A stretch of 64,000 bases of DNA, taken from contig CAZTQB010000002.1 of NCBI GenBank assembly GCA_964615775.1, forward strand, positions 21,589 to 85,588, given 5' to 3'. Shown here piece by piece: positions 3,316-61,670 of this stretch (position 1 is the first letter of the stretch; every line of letters starts with the position of its first letter). A program made the position numbers and the translations under genes. The notes beneath the pieces were generated by a model. The model was given only the letters and a program-made list of their open reading frames with translations, made no database searches and was not told where the DNA came from. Origin of the DNA: an uncultured Candidatus Saccharibacteria bacterium. Lineage in GTDB: Bacteria; Patescibacteriota; Saccharimonadia; Saccharimonadales; 2-12-FULL-41-12.

Positions 3316-6377
<3,062 letters not shown>

Positions 6378-49533: not shown

Positions 49534-51108
49534 TTATCTAGTTTTAAGAGTAAAAATCTGTGTATTGGTGGCTTCAACCAGCTGATTATCTCTCGGGAAA
49601 AAGCATACCGCTGCAAAATCTTGCCAAGGTTTACCAGTTAAATTTGTAAACCAGTTTCGAATAATAGTTAGGTTCGCCTCTGTTATAGCTGGGTCAGCAT
49701 TAATTCCAATACTACGCATATCATAAAAAGCTGACAGTGGATAAAGACTACTTGTTTTTATAGCTGGATTGGCTGGGTCATCGGAATTTACGGTTTTTAT
49801 AGTATCCCTTAGCGATTCACTTAAAACTGCAGAACCACCACTCGCACCCGGCGAACAAACAGCATTTGCAGCACTGGCCTGCTTTATTCCGACCACGGTT
49901 GTATTGATCGGTGGCTTGCTAACCCTAGTCATCATCACGTTATTTTTTAAAACTTCACCATTAATCAACTGCAGCTTAACCGAACTAGGATTATTTGGCT
50001 GGAGTAGTGGATAGCCAGCAATAGTTACAGAAGTTCCAATAGCTACATCTTGATTGTTTATAGATTGATTAATTGATTTCATTGCATTATTAGTCGCCAC
50101 ACCTTTAGGGATCATGTAAACTGAGTCATTTGCGTCAGGACCAGTAGGTACAATCATTCTATCAACACTTGTAACTAGCTGTTTATTACTTAGCGAATCA
50201 CCGTTGTAGACACCTAGCGAACCAACATAAGATGTATCGCTATCAACGACACCCTTACCACAATGCTCTGCCGAGCGAATCGCTGCAATTTTACCTTGAC
50301 TATCTCTAACTATCGAACCACTACAACCCGAAAACTCTATATAAACTGTGTTTGCTTTCATTATTGTGCTATAAGCTTTTTCGACATCAAACGGAGGTGA
50401 CTCTGGGTTAGGTGGCTGACCTGGGTCTTTTGGAGGTGTAGTAGTCTCTGGTGGCGATATGACTGCTGGTGGTTGATTTGTCACTGCTGGCGGATCATTT
50501 ACAGTAACTTCACCTGTTGGTGGTATTGGTGTAATTTGTACACCAGGACTAGATATTGGTGCATTAGGATTCGTCGGGATTTCTGTCGTAAGCTTTTTAG
50601 CAACTTGAGGTTTTATGAAAACTGCTCTTAATTTTTTATCATTTAGGCCAATTATAGAACCTGATTTTATCGGTAAAAATACAACTTTTTTATTTTTAGG
50701 ATTGATGATCTTTCTATAAAAACCAGCCACATTTTCAGTAGTATACTGATCATCTTGTAACTTAATCGGTATGACACCGGCAAATATTAAACCATGCTTT
50801 TTAAGATCACTTTTGGCTTGATTGATAGATATTTTTTGGCCGTTTTTAATAAATGCGGGGACTCTGAAGTCTGGTTTTTTTGTACTTGTTTCGTGGATTT
50901 CGGTTGAATTTTTACCAGTTGTTATCTCTGTATCGGGTTTTTGAACTTTGGCCTGAGCTTCATCAACCACGCCTTCTCCCGACACAAGACCATTGCCTAA
51001 AACAGCACAAGTCGCAAGGACAGCTAGCGACCTTTTGCGTAACAAACTTTGGCCAGCTTCTTGCTGAGATTCTGAGTTTAAATTTGGCCCTAGTGGTTTA
51101 TTTTCCAT
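49534..51108 (-). CDS. secreted trypsin-like (S1 family) serine peptidase with Pro-rich linker
   Basis: Signal-like N-terminus, Pro-rich spacer (PPAVTNQPPAVISPPETTTPPKDPGQPPNPESPP), His motif SAEHCG and Ser motif CSPGASGGSAV. Confidence 0.65.
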   Translation of the reverse strand: MENKPLGPNLNSESQQEAGQSLLRKRSLAVLATCAVLGNGLVSGEGVVDEAQAKVQKPDTEITTGKNSTEIHETSTKKPDFRVPAFIKNGQKISINQAKSDLKKHGLIFAGVIPIKLQDDQYTTENVAGFYRKIINPKNKKVVFLPIKSGSIIGLNDKKLRAVFIKPQVAKKLTTEIPTNPNAPISSPGVQITPIPPTGEVTVNDPPAVTNQPPAVISPPETTTPPKDPGQPPNPESPPFDVEKAYSTIMKANTVYIEFSGCSGSIVRDSQGKIAAIRSAEHCGKGVVDSDTSYVGSLGVYNGDSLSNKQLVTSVDRMIVPTGPDANDSVYMIPKGVATNNAMKSINQSINNQDVAIGTSVTIAGYPLLQPNNPSSVKLQLINGEVLKNNVMMTRVSKPPINTTVVGIKQASAANAVCSPGASGGSAVLSESLRDTIKTVNSDDPANPAIKTSSLYPLSAFYDMRSIGINADPAITEANLTIIRNWFTNLTGKPWQDFAAVCFFPRDNQLVEATNTQIFTLKTR

Positions 51109-54291: not shown

Positions 54292-55191
54292 TTAATTATC
54301 ATCACGATCCTCAAGTCGTTTTCTTAGGACCTTAAGTTCGTACTTTCTACCTAAGTAAAAGGTTGAGGCGATTAGTGGAATGGCAATTGCAGCCGGCTGC
54401 CATAAAATTTTGGTTTTTTCCTGTGTTTTTTCATTTTTTTGATCGGCAGAATTTTTTGCATCAGCTGCAGACTGCGAAACCGGTCCGTTAGCAACTGCTA
54501 CCAACTGCAAGAATGCCACAGAGCCATTTTTATCAACTGCCCTAATAACCACATTATAAACACCAGAGTTTTGGTATGTATGCTCGATATTTATCGTGCC
54601 AGCAAACTGAATACTCTTCAAGTCATCTTGCTTACCATCACCCCAATCGATTGTCATGGCATATGGGCCATCGCCACCAGTTAGAGTAATTGGCCAGGTC
54701 AATTTTTGGCCAGGATTAGCACCTTTTTTTGCAAAACTCGAAGTTAAGGCAATCTTCGCTCCAATATTTATACCATTAACTGGTACGGTGACCCTAACAA
54801 CAGCTGAGTCAGGACCGGCTTGATCTAAATCGTCATAAACTCTTGCAACCAGCTCGTTCATACCAGTAAACAGATCTATTTTGATCGAAAAACTTCCATT
54901 ACTACACTGCGATGAACCAGCAAAAACATTGTTTTTGAACAACTTCACCAATGTGTTATTAGGACAAATGCCGGTAACAGTAGTTATCGTTTCAGTTGTT
55001 GAAGTACCATCACGAGGGAAAGAAATGCTAGCCGGTGTGGTAGGTGGTGGCGAAGAAATCTTACCTTCTAGACCAACCGACCCAGACTGCTCAGCAGCAA
55101 AAACCAGTATTGGGGCAAAAAATATCATCAAACAAAATACAGCCACACCAAGTGAAGATATTGCTAGCAAAAGATTATTAGTTATTTTCAT
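54292..55191 (-). CDS. surface protein with Ig-like and PKD domains and a C-terminal TM anchor
   Basis: Signal/TM N-terminus. PKD signature GGDGPYAMTIDWGDGKQDD...HTYQNSGVYNVVIRAVDKNGS. C-terminal helix WQPAAIAIPLIASTFYLG followed by a charged tail. Confidence 0.75.
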   Translation of the reverse strand: MKITNNLLLAISSLGVAVFCLMIFFAPILVFAAEQSGSVGLEGKISSPPPTTPASISFPRDGTSTTETITTVTGICPNNTLVKLFKNNVFAGSSQCSNGSFSIKIDLFTGMNELVARVYDDLDQAGPDSAVVRVTVPVNGINIGAKIALTSSFAKKGANPGQKLTWPITLTGGDGPYAMTIDWGDGKQDDLKSIQFAGTINIEHTYQNSGVYNVVIRAVDKNGSVAFLQLVAVANGPVSQSAADAKNSADQKNEKTQEKTKILWQPAAIAIPLIASTFYLGRKYELKVLRKRLEDRDDN

Positions 55192-55254
55192 TATTAAATC
55201 TCTTATGTATATATTAGCTTCTCGTTCAAAAATTTTCTAGTTCTAAACAAAGTT

Positions 55255-55297
55255 AAAAAAGTCCTTACTATAGACTTAGCTATAGCAGGACTTTTTT
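55255..55297 (-). terminator. intrinsic terminator between the DUF916-like gene and the PKD gene
   Basis: AAAAAAGTCCTTACTATAG ... CTATAGCAGGACTTTTTT forms a long hairpin. T-runs lie on both strands. Confidence 0.7.
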
Positions 55298-55311
55298 ATG
55301 ACTAATTATTT

Positions 55312-56319
55312 TTAGCGTCGATTACGACTAGATCCATTGACCTTTTTGCGATAAACCATGTATCCAGCAACAACTAGTAAGACCACGACTGCAAGCACAG
55401 CTATAACAAACCACAGTGGAAGGTACCAAAATGACTTTTTGACATTTACTACCTCGCCACCATTACCATAAGCTATGCCAGCAACAATCGTATATTTACC
55501 TGGCATTTTGACACCGCTGATGCCATCAGTGAAAACTCTTTTTGATCGAGGTAAAACAATGGCTTTTGGATCTTTATTATTTAGGTCGTACTTACTGACT
55601 TCTTTTGAACCTTTTTCAACCGTTACAGCTCCAAATGGTCGAGCAAAACCATTACCTAAGTTCTCGATAGTTAATGAAACTTTCTGTGGATTCTGAAATA
55701 TGGAAGCTTTTTTACCATTACTGTTAAGTAGACTTACATCGTTGATGCTAATTTTCTGGGTAATTTCGCCTGGCACCTCCAAAAAAACTAAGTGAGCCAC
55801 GCTGGCAGTCAAAGAAACTTGACGCTTAGTCTCGTCAACATTACCATCAGAGCTTACAGGTATAGCAGCATAACGCAAGGCACCAAAGTAAGCACCTGGA
55901 GCAGCCGACACAGGTACGCTCAAAGTATTTTCTATCTGCTTAGTCTCATTTGGCTTTAGCCTAAAGGGAGTTAAGTTAGTAATCATATTCTTTAGCGAAT
56001 AAGCTGTATTTTCTTTTTTGTCATCAATAATGATAGATGGGTCACCAGATGTGTTATCTGACACAAAGTCATTTAGCACAACTTGAGCCTCTACTTCACC
56101 CTGTGTAACGTTTTTTATTGTTACTGTAAATTTTTTTGACTCACCACGGTTGACACTTAAGTCAGTCCTGGTTGGTGAAAGCTGTAGTCCACTACCTCCG
56201 TTTTGAGTATTTGAAGTCTGTGCATGCACAAATGTACCAAAAATTGGCAATAGACTAAGTACCCCAACTAAGGCAGCGGTTAAAGTTTTTTTACGAAAAG
56301 ACACGATTTTTTCCTCCAT
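55312..56319 (-). CDS. two-domain Ig-like surface protein with C-terminal TM anchor, resembling WxL-interacting proteins (DUF916 + DUF3324)
   Basis: Signal peptide (TLTAALVGVLSLLPIFGTFVHAQT). First module LQLSPTRTDLSVNRGESKKFTVTIKNVTQGEVEAQVVLNDF...APGAYFGALRY. Second module SLTIENLGNGFARPFGAVTV...MPGKYTIVAGIAY. TM helix plus basic tail (YRKKVNGSSRNRR). The start is at ATG 56319 or GTG 56304; the track ORF extends to 56355. Confidence 0.7.
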   Translation of the reverse strand: MEEKIVSFRKKTLTAALVGVLSLLPIFGTFVHAQTSNTQNGGSGLQLSPTRTDLSVNRGESKKFTVTIKNVTQGEVEAQVVLNDFVSDNTSGDPSIIIDDKKENTAYSLKNMITNLTPFRLKPNETKQIENTLSVPVSAAPGAYFGALRYAAIPVSSDGNVDETKRQVSLTASVAHLVFLEVPGEITQKISINDVSLLNSNGKKASIFQNPQKVSLTIENLGNGFARPFGAVTVEKGSKEVSKYDLNNKDPKAIVLPRSKRVFTDGISGVKMPGKYTIVAGIAYGNGGEVVNVKKSFWYLPLWFVIAVLAVVVLLVVAGYMVYRKKVNGSSRNRR

Positions 56320-56403
56320 TTTTGATTTAGCCTTTAGAATAATAATAAATACCATTAACGTTTTTGTAAATAGCAGTTAAGTAATTATTATCAAAAAATA
56401 TAA

Positions 56404-57438
56404 CTAAAATGATGCCGTGGCAATGTAAGTAAGCGTAGTGTTATATATGCCCGCTGGCTGCGAACTAGATACATTTACAAGATAACTAACAGTAAAGACA
56501 TTGAAATCAGTTGAAGTAGTAGACTTAGAAATAGTTTGGTTTTTAAATGTAAACATATTGGGTTGATTATAGTCTGCAAGAGCAACCGAGGTACCAGCTC
56601 CAGCCGGATCTCTACCTATATTGGGTGCTGAGTTAGTACGCAAATTCATGCCAAACTGACTAACGCCCGGAATACTAACAGCCGGAGAATTAAGTGCTGG
56701 TATGGCATTGGTACCTGAAGACATTGTTATCCCATAAACTGAGGTACTGTAACCCGTTGGGTCATTAGTTGCTCCCGCATACTGTGATGTCAAAGATTTT
56801 GGTCCCGTTTTTGACAATTCACCAAAGCCAACAAAATCACCATTGGCCGACGAACAATCGTTAGCAACCGTTACGCCAACACAAAACGTCAAATACGGCG
56901 GTACAAAGCCGCTAACTGTAACTTGCTTGGCTGTAGAGAAGGCAACAGTGCCGTCATCTACCCTTGGTCCTAAGGCACCAACCCCAGAAAAACTAGATAC
57001 TCTCACAAAAACTGTTTGTTCCGAAGACGGATTGGTAATATTTGTAAAACTATAGCTAGCACTGCCAATAGATGTCGTACCTGGCAACCTAGAAACTACA
57101 ATCTTATTGGCAGTAGTAGCCGCGTCCATAGCAAAACCCATCTCGCCAGATTGACTTGCCAAGGTAGCTGCAGACACGCTTAGACCAGTCGGTGGCACGC
57201 AGGGCGAGCCAACCAGCGGGCTATTGACACAGTACTCAAATTCTAACGAACCAACATTATTGACCGTTGGGTAATCAAACTTAAAATTGTGATAAGTATT
57301 AACCGACACATTCGAGCTACCAATCACTACACTACGATTAGTCATTTGATAAGCCTTTGAGTCGGCTTGTAAAAATAGTAGCCCGAAAAGTGCTACTAAC
57401 GTAAGGATAGCCACCCTATGTTCATTAAACATACGCAT
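56404..57438 (-). CDS. secreted two-domain fibre/adhesin-like protein, paralog D (C-terminal ...AGIYNTTLTYIATASF)
   Basis: Signal peptide (VAILTLVALFGLLFLQADSKA). It shares an N-domain with the 455-aa paralog and a C-domain with all three paralogs (FGMNLRTN and the terminal motif). The start is probably ATG 57438; the track start at 57477 abuts the upstream terminator. Confidence 0.75.
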   Translation of the reverse strand: MRMFNEHRVAILTLVALFGLLFLQADSKAYQMTNRSVVIGSSNVSVNTYHNFKFDYPTVNNVGSLEFEYCVNSPLVGSPCVPPTGLSVSAATLASQSGEMGFAMDAATTANKIVVSRLPGTTSIGSASYSFTNITNPSSEQTVFVRVSSFSGVGALGPRVDDGTVAFSTAKQVTVSGFVPPYLTFCVGVTVANDCSSANGDFVGFGELSKTGPKSLTSQYAGATNDPTGYSTSVYGITMSSGTNAIPALNSPAVSIPGVSQFGMNLRTNSAPNIGRDPAGAGTSVALADYNQPNMFTFKNQTISKSTTSTDFNVFTVSYLVNVSSSQPAGIYNTTLTYIATASF

Positions 57439-57475
57439 ATGTAGATTATTATACTCTAATCTGCTTATGTTCAAC

Positions 57476-57505
57476 AAAAATCCTCCACATAGTAGTGGAG
57501 GATTT
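57476..57505 (-). terminator. strong intrinsic terminator directly after the 455-aa paralog
   Basis: AAATCCTCCAC (57478-57488) and GTGGAGGATTT (57495-57505) form a perfect 11-bp stem with a 6-nt loop. TTTTT follows on the minus strand. Confidence 0.8.
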
Positions 57506-57531: not shown

Positions 57532-58899
57532 TTAGAAAGTAGGTGTAGCAATGTATGTGCTTTGTACAGTATAAGCACCGGTTGGTGTAGTTGCACTTGC
57601 TGTAGCACCAAACCGCATCTTAATTAGCTCGTCGTCAACAACTGTTGTAGAGCTAGCTAAATTAACAGCCGTACCAGTGGCATTCCAGGCAAACTTATCA
57701 CTTACCTCTGCTGTCTGGCAATCACGCGATCCAGTGTCAGCTATTACAGAGTCTCCGTCGTAGGCAGCAGTAACGCTACCTAAGTTAGATGTTGTACCAG
57801 CTGCTGCTTGAGTAGTGGAGTTTGTAATACATGCAACTTGCATACCAAACCGCTCTGTACCGGCAGTAAGAGTCTCACCAGACGAACTAGCACTTACAAA
57901 ACACTGATCAACTAAGCTAGTGCCGCTAACGTTACAGGTTGCACCAGGTACACGGAAAGCACGTAATTCGTTAGTACCGGTTGCTGCTTGAGAAGCATAG
58001 TAGGCTACAGCTACGCCGTTGGAGGCGTTAGTATTTACTATGGCTGCACCGAAGCGATCGTTACCGGTGGAGCTAGGAGGTGTATTATTGACAGGTGCTT
58101 TAGCAATACTTGAATTATCAATTACACCAAGATCTACTACACTGCTTGCATTTGCTTCAGTTGCAGAGCAGCTAGTTGGATAGTTAGTAGCAGCAGTTCC
58201 AACTGTTGCACTAGAACCAGCAGCGTCATCTAAGGCAAATACACAGAAAACTAGTCTTTCCTGTACCCTACCTATAACAGTAAGCTGATTAACGATTGAG
58301 GCAGCCACAACTCCGTCATGCTGCAAAGTAGTAAAAGTTGAGTCACTATATACCCCTACTCTGACGTAAACAGTTGTGTTGTTGCCAGATGGTATTGATG
58401 GATTAGTTACAGTATTGATTACTACTGTTTTTGCTGCTGTGTCTTCAGCAGTACCAGCTGTTCTGGTTAGACAGTAGGTAGTGGCAGTGTTGTCACCCGA
58501 AGTTCCTTGACCATCACAAGAGCCAGCGTTGGCACCTGAATACTCAGCAAAGGATGCTGGTTGTGAAAAGCCTGATTGGCTACCATAAGCTACTGTGGCA
58601 TAACCAACATTCATACCGGTTGGTAATGTACAAGTACCTAGTGGTGCCGTACAGAACTTAAATACTAACCCCTGCATTACTACAGAAGTTGTAGGAGTGA
58701 AGCTAAATGAATAGCTAACACCAGTTGCACTTGGCTGCGAGGTAGAAATGGTTACGCTGCGCGTAGCCAAAGTGTCGGCATTAGCTATCCCTTGGAAAGT
58801 CAGTGGTACAAGACCAGCGACTGCCATGACAATAGCGACTGCCATTAGGGATGTACGCTTTACTCGCATTTTAGCGACATCAAGGTGATTTTTTATCAT
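57532..58899 (-). CDS. secreted two-domain fibre/adhesin-like protein, paralog C (candidate major subunit; ends ...TGAYTVQSTYIATPTF)
   Basis: Strong SD AAAAGGAGAAAAG. Signal peptide ending GIANA|DT. The 455-aa protein is very rich in Thr/Ser/Ala/Gly/Val and has few charged residues. It has several Cys pairs and the ERFGMQV motif. Confidence 0.8.
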   Translation of the reverse strand: MIKNHLDVAKMRVKRTSLMAVAIVMAVAGLVPLTFQGIANADTLATRSVTISTSQPSATGVSYSFSFTPTTSVVMQGLVFKFCTAPLGTCTLPTGMNVGYATVAYGSQSGFSQPASFAEYSGANAGSCDGQGTSGDNTATTYCLTRTAGTAEDTAAKTVVINTVTNPSIPSGNNTTVYVRVGVYSDSTFTTLQHDGVVAASIVNQLTVIGRVQERLVFCVFALDDAAGSSATVGTAATNYPTSCSATEANASSVVDLGVIDNSSIAKAPVNNTPPSSTGNDRFGAAIVNTNASNGVAVAYYASQAATGTNELRAFRVPGATCNVSGTSLVDQCFVSASSSGETLTAGTERFGMQVACITNSTTQAAAGTTSNLGSVTAAYDGDSVIADTGSRDCQTAEVSDKFAWNATGTAVNLASSTTVVDDELIKMRFGATASATTPTGAYTVQSTYIATPTF

Positions 58900-58992: not shown

Positions 58993-59790
58993 TTAAAAAA
59001 CTGGCACAACCACTAGTACATGATCTAGCCGATATGTACCAGCAGCTGAAGTACTACCAGCTTTGGCAATATAAGAAATCGTATAGTTAGTTTGACCAAC
59101 GGCTTGGTTACCGATTGTGTTAGGCGAACGAGCAATAACATCACCGGTATTGAACTTATACTGGTTCGACGTATTATAACCAGATTCAATCTTGCCATCA
59201 GCAAAACTATTGTCTGGAACATTGACTGGATTTGCTCCCATGGTACCAGGTGAAGTGTTGGTAGTTAGATTCATGCCAAACTCCTCGTCGCTATCATTAA
59301 CGCTCGGTGTACCTAAAGTAGATTTTGCTTGCATATACTTGCCGCTCTCATTTTTTGGTGGCAGGGAAGCATTAATTACTGTGTACTGCGAAGATAGGTA
59401 GGTACGAACTGTAAATGAACAGTTGCAAGCACCGCCCTGAGCAGCTCCAAATGACGGTGTCGAGGTTTGTAGCACTCCAAAATCAACTGTTGCACCAGAT
59501 ACGGTCATTTCTAGATACGGCTCACTTGGAGTCACACCACCAGATATAGCATCATAATTTGTACTCGAAGTATTGCCAACACCCAACGAACCAGCTTGTT
59601 GTCTTGCACGATAGCTATTAGAACTAGCGTCTACCTCACCACCTGTCCCAAAATATGGCTCCTCCAGCCGATAATTTGGTGAAGAAGCCTGAGCAAAAAC
59701 CAACGTCGGATAGGCAATAATCACTAGGCTTAGTCCGATAGTTGATAAATTAGCAAGTATTTTTCCCAAAATGTTTTGTTTCATAACCAA
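58993..59790 (-). CDS. secreted single-domain paralog B (ends ...AGTYRLDHVLVVVPVF)
   Basis: Signal peptide (IGLSLVIIAYPTLVFAQA). It matches only the C-terminal domain of paralogs C and D (PYLEMTVSGATVDFGVL, EEFGMNLTTN and the terminal motif). Confidence 0.75.
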   Translation of the reverse strand: MVMKQNILGKILANLSTIGLSLVIIAYPTLVFAQASSPNYRLEEPYFGTGGEVDASSNSYRARQQAGSLGVGNTSSTNYDAISGGVTPSEPYLEMTVSGATVDFGVLQTSTPSFGAAQGGACNCSFTVRTYLSSQYTVINASLPPKNESGKYMQAKSTLGTPSVNDSDEEFGMNLTTNTSPGTMGANPVNVPDNSFADGKIESGYNTSNQYKFNTGDVIARSPNTIGNQAVGQTNYTISYIAKAGSTSAAGTYRLDHVLVVVPVF

Positions 59791-59817: not shown

Positions 59818-60495
59818 TTAGCGAGCCTGAAACGATTTGATAATCTCTGTAAATTCCGTAGCGTCTGGCACAGCTCGTAGATTAGTGTAATAAAACGCAT
59901 AAGTCGCTTGACTTTTATCTGGTCGACTCATGCTTATACTAGTGCCACCACCAACTTGACCAACCATAACAGTATAGTTGGTACTATCTGAATTACACTT
60001 AAGCTTTGTGTCGTCCATTATGACATCTGTGTCATTCATGGTAGATCTACCACCCAGCTTTTGAATACAATGTTCAGATACACTTGATGGCATCATTTCG
60101 AAGTTATTGCCCATTAACTTAACAGGTAAAACATGGTTAGCCGACAAATTGGCTGGAATCTGATTGACATAAATTATTAGCTCATGCTCAATTAGGTTTG
60201 ACTTTAAGCTCCGATAAACAAACTTACTAGGTGTAGACTCGTTAGGAATCTCAACCCAACCTTTTGGAGCCTGAAACTGAAAGTAAGGTGAACGCAGAAT
60301 ATTAACCGACGAAGTCATAACACTATTAGAATTACCAGACTCAACCGGCTCAAAAACTGTAGTTTTACGTATATTTCTAATAAAGAGTGTACCTGCTATC
60401 ACAATCAATAGCACAAGAACAATAGTAACTACCAGTCTAGTTCGAAAAATTATTTTTTTCCTTTTTTGGTAATTTAGATGGTTATTATACTTCAT
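59818..60495 (-). CDS. hypothetical N-terminally anchored extracytoplasmic protein, first gene of the surface locus
   Basis: Basic N-terminus plus one TM helix (LVVTIVLVLLIVIAGTLFI), then a ~170-aa soluble domain with two Cys residues. No family was recognised. Confidence 0.6.
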   Translation of the reverse strand: MKYNNHLNYQKRKKIIFRTRLVVTIVLVLLIVIAGTLFIRNIRKTTVFEPVESGNSNSVMTSSVNILRSPYFQFQAPKGWVEIPNESTPSKFVYRSLKSNLIEHELIIYVNQIPANLSANHVLPVKLMGNNFEMMPSSVSEHCIQKLGGRSTMNDTDVIMDDTKLKCNSDSTNYTVMVGQVGGGTSISMSRPDKSQATYAFYYTNLRAVPDATEFTEIIKSFQAR

Positions 60496-60641: not shown

Positions 60642-61670
60642 ATGGAAACTAATAACCAAACTCCAAAATCAGAAGAAAAACCAAATGATAGCTCACTACA
60701 AGAGCTTGATTCTCAGACGACTATTATTGCAGATGGTTCTGATGGTGAATCCCTGGACCCAAACGCTACTCCTACCAACGAAGAAAAGACAGATGGTTCT
60801 AAAAAACCTAAGTCAAAAAAACCCTATACAGGGGTTAAAGGCCTAGCTGCAAAACTAAACATCTACTTACTTTTGTTTATTTTGGCCATAGTAATTGCTG
60901 GTGTTGTTACTTTTGTAAGTTTCCAAAAAAACCGTGATTCCGCCAAGAAGCAGAATCAGCCAGTTTCTACTACACCCTTAAGCGAACAAGACCTTGAGAA
61001 ACTGCGTCAGACTGACGTTAAAGTTGGTGATCCTAAGCAAATATTAAGTGTTGAATCCAATGCTATTTTTGCTGGCAAAGTACTGATCAGAGATAGTCTT
61101 GAAGTGGCTGGAGCCATAAAAGTCGGCGGACCACTAAATTTACCTGGAATTAGTGTTTCGGGAGCTAGTATTTTTGACCAAGTTCAGATTAACAACCTAA
61201 AAGTTAACTCCGGTGCTACAGTTAGTGGTCAATTAGGCGTACAAGGCAATACCTCGGTTAGTGGCAACTTAACTGTCGGCGGTACAATATCGGCTGGTCG
61301 ACTTAATATCGAGGTCATGCAGATTAACCAAGATTTACAGTTATCCAGACATATCGACGCTGGAGGTGGCACACCAAGCTATAATAGCGGCGGTGCTTTA
61401 GGTAGTGGCGGCACAGCATCACTAAGCGGTACCGATACCGCTGGCACGGTAAATATTAACACTGGTAGTGGTACAGCAGCTGGCTGTTTTGTAAATATTA
61501 ATTTTACGCAAAAATTTAGCTCACCACATGTTGCAATAACCCCTATCGGAGGGGCAGCTGGAGCCTTAAATTATTATGCCAATCGCTCAGCAACCGGTTT
61601 TAGTATCTGCACCAGTAACCCAGCTCCTGCCGGACAGAATTTTGCATTTGATTATATTGTAATCGACTAG
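60642..61670 (+). CDS. bitopic membrane protein with extracytoplasmic beta-helix-like repeats and a C-terminal beta-sandwich-like domain
   Basis: Acidic/Lys-rich N-terminus and a TM helix (IYLLLFILAIVIAGVVTFVSF). Short G-x-[LV]-x-V-x-G-type repeats follow (LEVAGAIKVGGPLNLPGISVSGASIF...VSGQLGVQGNTSVSGNLTVGGTISAG). The C-terminus is CFVNINFTQKFSSPHVAITP...ATGFSICT...FAFDYIVID. Confidence 0.65.
   Translation: METNNQTPKSEEKPNDSSLQELDSQTTIIADGSDGESLDPNATPTNEEKTDGSKKPKSKKPYTGVKGLAAKLNIYLLLFILAIVIAGVVTFVSFQKNRDSAKKQNQPVSTTPLSEQDLEKLRQTDVKVGDPKQILSVESNAIFAGKVLIRDSLEVAGAIKVGGPLNLPGISVSGASIFDQVQINNLKVNSGATVSGQLGVQGNTSVSGNLTVGGTISAGRLNIEVMQINQDLQLSRHIDAGGGTPSYNSGGALGSGGTASLSGTDTAGTVNINTGSGTAAGCFVNINFTQKFSSPHVAITPIGGAAGALNYYANRSATGFSICTSNPAPAGQNFAFDYIVID

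Follow-up and report, generated by a model that had tools for sequence, protein, structure and literature searches.

The gene on the minus strand at positions 55312-56355 of the 64,000-nucleotide window analysed in this study (the whole stretch of contig CAZTQB010000002.1 from 21,589 to 85,588, from an uncultured Candidatus Saccharibacteria bacterium) probably encodes a membrane-tethered chaperone of the PamC/D family, standing at the PamD position of a 'Pam' donor-strand-exchange pilus operon of the candidate phyla radiation (CPR) and acting by the stepwise mechanism proposed below. The evidence comprises the architecture of the protein, the homology of its first domain to WxL-interacting proteins (WxLIPs), its fold and its synteny. 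Pam filaments of Candidatus Mycosynbacter amalyticus have been solved by cryo-electron microscopy (Troman et al., bioRxiv 2026, doi 10.64898/2026.03.03.709456), and that preprint names two operon proteins, PamC and PamD, as FimC/PapD-like chaperones with a C-terminal transmembrane (TM) helix on the basis of AlphaFold and Foldseek. In AlphaFold complexes for M. amalyticus, chaperone strands fill the groove in the C-terminal domain of the pilin, and the authors propose usher-free growth from the membrane, with PamT as the tip and PamR as the terminator and anchor. This kind of protein has already been described in the preprint; what is new is that domain 1 of the Pam chaperones belongs to the WxLIP/DUF916 family, a relationship found in neither literature. 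The Pam preprint does not mention WxL, DUF916 or DUF3324, while a paper on WxLIPs (Hassan et al. 2023, PMC10599100), in which a hairpin strand is predicted by AlphaFold2 to make the beta-sandwich of WxL complete, does not mention chaperones, ushers or donor strands. No paper combining the two vocabularies was found in the library searched, and a Southlakia transposon sequencing (Tn-seq) paper (PMC10633639) mentions neither DUF916 nor a chaperone.

The ORF (open reading frame) of 347 amino acids was located on the minus strand by translation of the window; the plus-strand frame over 55312-56355 contains stops throughout. The true start is likely to be the GTG at 56304 rather than the first ATG, because a GGAGG Shine-Dalgarno sequence lies 8 nt upstream of this GTG, within the stretch starting at the ATG at 56319, and because homologues are about 320-335 amino acids long and have matching N-termini that start at the equivalent M-S-F-x-K-K. 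The product would then be 330 amino acids long before signal-peptide cleavage. The gene is made up as follows.

55312-56355, minus strand: PamC/D-type, DUF916-family membrane-tethered protein, longest ORF 347 amino acids (sequence, Pfam, homologues, model, Foldseek).
56302-56304, minus strand: probable true start codon, GTG (sequence; lengths and N-termini of homologues).
56221-56304, minus strand: signal peptide VSFRKKTLTAALVGVLSLLPIFGTFVHA, predicted to be cleaved after VHA (sequence; helix 9-27 in the model).
55774-56187, minus strand: domain 1, a beta-sandwich homologous to DUF916/WxLIP_PGBD (Pfam match over 55873-56163; alignment, model, HHalign).
55423-55752, minus strand: domain 2, likewise a beta-sandwich, which contains a PGKY motif and a loop, NLGNGF.RPFG, that is invariant (alignment, model; no DUF3324 sequence match).
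55351-55416, minus strand: C-terminal TM helix LWFVIAVLAVVVLLVVAGYMVY (sequence, alignment, model).
55315-55350, minus strand: basic tail RKKVNGSSRNRR, predicted to be cytoplasmic (sequence).

The hydrophobic N-terminal signal sequence ends in VHA, with Q as the next residue. An AlphaFold2 model built from a 70-sequence alignment (residue numbers count from M13 of the ORF) reached a mean predicted local distance difference test (pLDDT) score of 89.8 and a predicted TM-score (pTM) of 0.78, and shows a signal-peptide helix, beta-sandwiches at residues 45-182 and 190-299, and a TM helix from residue 302. Domain 1 carries a long conserved loop (NDF.SD..SG.P) and, ahead of its last strand, a variable loop of low confidence in which the block at residues 161-170 has a pLDDT of 68. 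The last strand itself, Q.(A/S)LTASV, is invariant or nearly so in the alignment, where the near-invariant motifs also include GSGLQ.SPTR in the first strand, the NDF.SD..SG.P loop, PGAY.G..RY, NLGNGF.RPFG and FWY.P.W. The last of these is an invariant juxtamembrane motif just before the 22-residue hydrophobic TM helix. A type I topology, with both immunoglobulin-like (Ig-like) domains outside the cell, is predicted under the positive-inside rule because the basic tail follows this helix. The first-pass annotation, made from the letters of the window, had described a signal sequence, two beta-rich modules, a C-terminal TM helix and a basic tail; sequence and model agree with every element of that description, and all four peptides that it quoted are present in the minus-strand translation.

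The conservation of this gene is far beyond chance, since 137 homologues were found at E<=0.001 and an exhaustive profile search recovered 8364 clusters at 50% identity (E<=1e-3), with 382 of them at E<=1e-30. The best of the 137 homologues (E 1.8e-178) is 83% identical, and all of them come from Saccharibacteria or other CPR assemblies; none of the listed matches bears the name of Candidatus Mycosynbacter amalyticus.

The Pfam family WxLIP_PGBD (PF06030, formerly DUF916) matched the target with E 2.6e-7 and 31.2 bits, where the curated cut-off is 27.3, and it also matched 54 of 70 close relatives and 38 of 51 distant relatives (23-32% identity). An authentic WxLIP for comparison was taken from the WxL cluster on Enterococcus mundtii plasmid pLDW-8, where it is annotated as a 'DUF916 and DUF3324 domain-containing protein'. 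In HHalign, the family profile matched this protein over its full length with 96.8% probability (E 2.2e-10, 261 co-linear columns), and domain 1 alone, compared after removal of signal peptide and TM helix, gave 96.6% (P 6e-10). Domain 2 against domain 2 of the WxLIP gave 0.2%, the level of the cross-domain controls, and PF11797 (DUF3324) matched neither the target nor any of the 121 relatives in Pfam searches; homology of domain 2 to DUF3324 was accordingly rejected at the sequence level. The protein had been called DUF916/DUF3324-like, with searches against PF06030 and PF11797 as the proposed check. The DUF916 half of that description stands, on the PF06030 match above its cut-off and on HHalign of domain 1, and the DUF3324 half has been dropped.

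The target resembles the WxLIPs of Enterococcus, Lactiplantibacillus and Listeria in having a signal peptide, two Ig-like domains, a TM helix and a length of about 330-360 amino acids, as well as in the sequence of domain 1. Unlike them, it lacks a detectable DUF3324 domain and the N-terminal WxLIP motif NQIDKxxxYFDLK, which is absent from the HHalign alignment with the E. mundtii WxLIP: the segment aligned to this region reads GSGLQLSPTRTDLSV in the target and GSGRYFDLNSEPG in the WxLIP, with GSGLQISPTRTELS as the family consensus. Its neighbours are also different, being Pam pilins in which no WxL homology was detected rather than at least two WxL-domain proteins, and the gene order in E. 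mundtii (LPXTG protein, short WxL, WxLIP, long WxL) differs from that of the pam operon. No model in NCBIfam release 20 matches the target or its relatives, even though PamR, PamT and the pilin C-terminal domain have models there, and a search of Protein Data Bank (PDB) sequences with the chaperone profile yielded only spurious matches to TM and Ig segments, such as neuroplastin.

Comparison of folds pointed to the same family. The top Foldseek matches of the model in the PDB were the Enterococcus faecium WxLIP structures 9i1y and 9i25 (E 1.3e-11 to 2.9e-10; target-normalised TM-score 0.45-0.50), both released in January 2026; entry 9i25 is titled 'WxLIP bound to long WxL' and represents a stable WxLIP-WxL complex. 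For domain 2, the only likeness to WxLIPs is at the level of fold, in the co-linear Foldseek alignment over both domains of these structures. Vibrio cholerae RbmA ranked second and was followed by the chaperones YadV, CfaA, CsuC, Caf1M, FimC, DraB, SafB and CupB2 (E 4e-9 to 3e-7), the chaperone-usher chaperones matching with a probability of 1.00 and a target-normalised TM-score of 0.44-0.54 over about 265 aligned columns. The matches also included CEP192 and chains of the ciliary central apparatus, which contain Ig domains of the ASH/PapD-like type. The structural comparison suggested by the first-pass annotation, against WxLIPs and against PapD/CsuC-type chaperones, therefore found both, and its reading of the gene as a WxLIP-like protein is borne out by PF06030, by the full-length HHalign result and by the two structures at the head of the Foldseek list.

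WxLIPs are the closest relatives both by sequence and by fold, and the WxLIP literature assigns them a role in stabilising and anchoring WxL proteins. It is therefore conceivable, though we consider it unlikely, that the target is a permanent anchor or adaptor in the WxLIP style, one that stays strand-inserted in a single pilin, for example a basal subunit, and tethers the finished fibre instead of acting as a transient chaperone. The stability of the 9i25 complex and the strong conservation of the TM helix, the FWY.P.W motif and the basic tail favour such a role. However, essentially every locus has a dedicated TM-anchored candidate for the terminator, PamR, as the next gene downstream, the models in the preprint put PamR and not the chaperone at the fibre base, and a soluble Deinococcus homologue without a TM helix (see below) implies that anchoring is not intrinsic to the family.

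The genomic context supports a function in pilus assembly and supplies the name, since the gene is PamD by position, lying between a PamE-type pilin and PamR. The genes of the operon and the adjoining transcription signal are the following.

54292-55191, minus strand: PamR, RbmA-like with a PKD-like domain and a C-terminal TM helix (NCBIfam NF058578, 375 bits against a cut-off of 300).
55250-55298, minus strand: likely intrinsic terminator or attenuator, a hairpin and then a U-run directly after the chaperone stop codon (RNA folding).
56404-57477, minus strand: Pam pilin of about 342 amino acids at the PamE position, ending in TYIATASF (NCBIfam NF058581, Pam_pilin_C, 138 bits; model).
57532-58899, minus strand: large Pam pilin of 455 amino acids at the PamA position, ending in TYIATPTF (Pam_pilin_C weak, 26.6 bits; iterative search, E 1e-93).
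58993-59790, minus strand: PamT-like single-domain tip pilin of 265 amino acids, ending in LVVVPVF (NF058579, 219.8 bits, under the cut-off of 240; NF058581, 91 bits).
59818-60495, minus strand: conserved 225-amino-acid protein with an N-terminal TM helix at the operon head (same position in about 49 loci).

The cut-off of Pam_pilin_C is 55 bits. The three pilin genes upstream of the chaperone were not linked by plain phmmer, but iterative search connected them (E 1e-93 and 2e-43), so that they are true paralogs, as the first reading of the sequence had claimed. The possibility that they encode WxL proteins was rejected, as they are Pam pilins by NCBIfam and have no Pfam WxL match. Across 80 Saccharibacteria loci fetched with the family profile, the same order was repeated: the 225-amino-acid TM protein, PamT, one or more large pilins, a pilin of about 350 amino acids, the chaperone and PamR. 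Each locus has one chaperone, the pilin of about 350 amino acids directly precedes it in every locus with upstream DNA, and in the 81 loci examined PamR adjoins it wherever the extent of the contig allows; a relative only 27% identical shows the same arrangement. The flanks of the operon carry genes for ATP synthase and for a beta-helix protein. M. amalyticus PamC and PamD (WP_260763277.1 and WP_260763284.1) share with the target the signal peptide, two Ig-like domains of FimC/PapD fold and the C-terminal TM helix, and PamD also shares its place between a PamE-type pilin and PamR as well as the ATP-synthase and tail-fibre-like neighbourhood, which the preprint describes for the pam operon.

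This coupling also bears on whether the protein has any assembly role at all. Weak Pfam matches to carbohydrate-associated Ig families (NPCBM_assoc, fn3_5 and Glyco_hydro_123_N_2) recur in the family, and peptidoglycan and host binding have been proposed for WxLIPs; the gene could on these grounds encode an Ig-like protein that acts as a surface adhesin or binds the cell wall and is merely co-regulated with the pilus. This is very improbable, as those Pfam matches are all below cut-off and generic to Ig folds, the coupling with pilin genes is nearly universal and one-to-one with a fixed place between the pilin of about 350 amino acids and PamR, and the fold matches are to pilus chaperones. The suggestion in the first-pass annotation that the protein is a pilus chaperone tethered in the membrane gains from these fold matches, from the Pam pilin and PamR neighbours and from the independent proposal in the preprint, with the chaperone function itself still to be read as predicted.

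The presumed clients of the chaperone have a uniform end. The 201 pilins gathered from the window and the related loci all terminate in F (139) or Y (62); 198 of them have Y at position -13, and position -7 is hydrophobic or aromatic. Chaperone-usher pilins such as those of the Pap and Fim systems have a conserved C-terminal strand, of which the last strand of the Pam pilins is reminiscent. This uniformity would suit one chaperone that has between three and seven different pilins as clients. The model of the pilin at 56404-57477 (pLDDT 92.5) consists of an N-terminal sandwich, a linker strand and an incomplete Ig-like C-terminal domain. Like the chaperone-usher chaperones PapD, FimC, Caf1M, CsuC and CfaA, the target has a two-domain Ig-like fold, and its clients are likewise incomplete-Ig pilins with a conserved aromatic C-terminal strand. 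Unlike them, it is tethered to the membrane instead of soluble, shows no sequence likeness to them, and belongs to a system with neither an usher nor an outer membrane.

The mechanism that we propose on this basis has five steps. The protein would be exported by Sec via its signal peptide, and its C-terminal helix and basic tail would then hold it in the cytoplasmic membrane with the two Ig-like domains outside, as sequence and model predict. Domain 1, of the DUF916/WxLIP_PGBD type, would donate a strand to newly exported pilins by inserting it into their C-terminal domain, an incomplete Ig-like fold, thereby keeping them folded and preventing premature polymerisation; this step is suggested by the similarity to the chaperone-usher fold, the WxLIP-WxL complex 9i25 and the AlphaFold complexes of M. 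amalyticus. WxLIPs bind their partner by strand insertion, both in prediction and in the solved complex 9i25, and we infer the same for the target. The linker strand of the next pilin would displace the chaperone strand, giving usher-free growth of the fibre from the membrane as in the model of the preprint, and one chaperone may serve all three pilins of the operon, in keeping with the C-terminal strand motif that they have in common. PamR would finally terminate and anchor the fibre.

Pfam and NCBIfam scans found no usher-like gene in the operon or the window, and the conserved operon encodes neither an usher-like nor another transenvelope component, a lack of machinery on which the preprint agrees. 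A combined chaperone and assembly platform could make up for this if the protein, possibly as an oligomer, both capped the subunits and catalysed donor-strand exchange at the membrane in place of an usher. Fused double-chaperone proteins among the relatives would suit such a role, for example the metagenomic protein P0371 (637 amino acids, locus L085:726-2639), in which two complete chaperone copies are joined in tandem. However, oligomerisation and catalysis are purely hypothetical, and the 225-amino-acid membrane protein at the operon head is an equally good candidate for a platform, so that this option appears distinctly improbable. The operon-head protein has no Pfam, NCBIfam or PHROG match and its name was not found in the available sections of the Pam preprint; it is a candidate for a further assembly factor. 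Locus L085 also encodes a 375-amino-acid chaperone homologue (4802-5929) and pilin-like proteins ending in YIIVPTF and TYVATPTF.

Several results weigh against a PamD-like chaperone that exchanges strands with its pilins. The sequence has no likeness to PapD or FimC: HHalign against FimC (the sequence used is identical to PDB 1bf8) gave 0.2%, equal to the controls, by which homology to FimC was rejected; PapD_N and PapD_C (PF00345 and PF02753) had no Pfam match in the target, and a weak PapD_N match (E 0.0046) occurred in only one of 70 relatives. The Arg8/Lys112 cleft pair, with which chaperone-usher chaperones hold the carboxylate at the pilin C-terminus, is not clearly recognisable in the family. 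Residue R51 (SPTR, first strand) resembles PapD Arg8 and is near-invariant in close relatives only, being lost in distant ones; R149 is near-invariant in close relatives, and R261 is invariant in the relatives of 23-32% identity in which R51 is not conserved. Foldseek gave modest TM-scores (0.38-0.54), close to those of generic tandem-Ig proteins, RbmA and a transglutaminase among them, so that the fold is best regarded as supportive rather than exclusive evidence. A profile-profile scan for mimicry between the last strand of chaperone domain 1 and the linker strand of the pilin was negative, as it did not place that strand first. The window has a single chaperone where M. amalyticus has two; phmmer with every Pam protein as query against the full set of six-frame ORFs of the window found no second chaperone and no PamB, so that there is no counterpart of the PamB/PamC pair. 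Synteny and architecture are what point to orthology with PamD (WP_260763284.1), and we infer the chaperone function, the binding mode and the exchange step from the comparisons above.

The family extends beyond the CPR. A plasmid of Deinococcus sp. AB2017081 (NZ_CP140100.1; locus L089:7920-8738) encodes a secreted homologue of 272 amino acids without a TM helix, which HHalign matched over both domains with 98.1% probability. Its neighbours are a secreted 293-amino-acid protein ending in KLTGTF, a 181-amino-acid protein and a 1090-amino-acid Ig-rich CarboxypepD_reg protein. The locus may represent, outside the CPR, a form of the system that is soluble and periplasmic, and a member without a TM helix hints at a family of strand-donating partners broader and older than 'CPR-specific' implies.

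On the client side, the relationship is much less clear. HHalign gave 0.1-0.2% both for a profile of 51 pilins against the short WxL protein and for a profile of 201 pilin C-terminal domains against five WxL domains. The Foldseek matches of the pilin model were all generic Ig adhesins of two domains, without the WxL chain of 9i25 among the top 50, and the pilin profile had no match among PDB sequences. The only part of Pam pilins and WxL that HHalign aligned was a 13-residue C-terminal motif, an alignment that is not statistically significant. In it, the last strand of the pilin (IYNTTLTYIATASF) aligns to the distal WxL motif (TYTSTLTWELTTTP, locus L088:4978-5769) of WxL proteins from enterococci, the shared segment reading IYNTTLTYIAT in the pilin and TYTSTLTWELT in WxL. 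This shared motif could reflect convergence or be a remnant of common descent. It is possible, as a tentative idea that we would not yet favour, that Pam chaperones, Firmicute WxLIPs and the soluble Deinococcus form constitute one ancient strand-donating family, that Pam shares its ancestry with WxL-type clusters and not with diderm chaperone-usher systems, and that the client motif Y.TTLT[YW].[AL]T is a remnant of that descent. If this were true, the WxL clusters of Firmicutes would be the monoderm counterpart of a donor-strand-complementation system for surface fibres.

Additional observations concern the operon and its surroundings. The hairpin at 55250-55298 was missed by a consensus terminator scan and was revealed by folding of the stretch; its free energy is -22.2 kcal/mol (z -6.2), a stability that none of 200 shuffles reached. 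It could terminate transcription after the pilin and chaperone genes or limit read-through into pamR, as would be expected if little of the terminator and anchor protein is needed. The listed TTG start of the pilin at 56404-57477 (a 357-amino-acid ORF) is probably too far upstream, as the identical protein P0128 has 342 amino acids and begins with MFNEHR. In the pilin family, the cysteines C68, C184 and C193 are invariant and C78 is almost invariant, in agreement with the disulfides that have been reported for PamA and PamB. The chaperone gene is inverted in place in two Saccharibacteria metagenome-assembled genomes (L037:9890-10918 and L039:9863-10879), with the pilins and PamR on the opposite strand and the rest of the operon co-linear; a search for inverted repeats flanking the inverted gene gave nothing convincing. 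Divergently from the operon, the plus strand at 60642-61670 encodes a 342-amino-acid protein with a TM segment and bactofilin-like beta-helix repeats, also present in locus L081, which is probably the conserved 'tail fibre-like' neighbour of the preprint. A few genes from the pam operon, the minus strand at 49534-51108 encodes a secreted protein of 524 amino acids that has a proline-rich linker and carries, at its C-terminus, a serine protease domain of the trypsin-like type (PF00089, E 2e-8).

The target resembles the new WxLIP structures more closely than any chaperone-usher chaperone, and it joins two literatures that do not cite each other. For annotation, no current NCBIfam model names this chaperone component. 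The WxLIP-WxL crystal complex and the tractable enterococci and lactobacilli offer experimental handles on usher-free donor-strand exchange by a tethered chaperone. The findings also suggest that WxL loci, which have been implicated in enterococcal virulence, merit re-examination as strand-complementation systems. Saccharibacteria, like other CPR bacteria, spend their lives attached to bacterial hosts, and an understanding of how they assemble their attachment fibres is only beginning to emerge; the locus described here is a compact, single-chaperone Pam operon consisting of PamT, two pilins, the chaperone and PamR.

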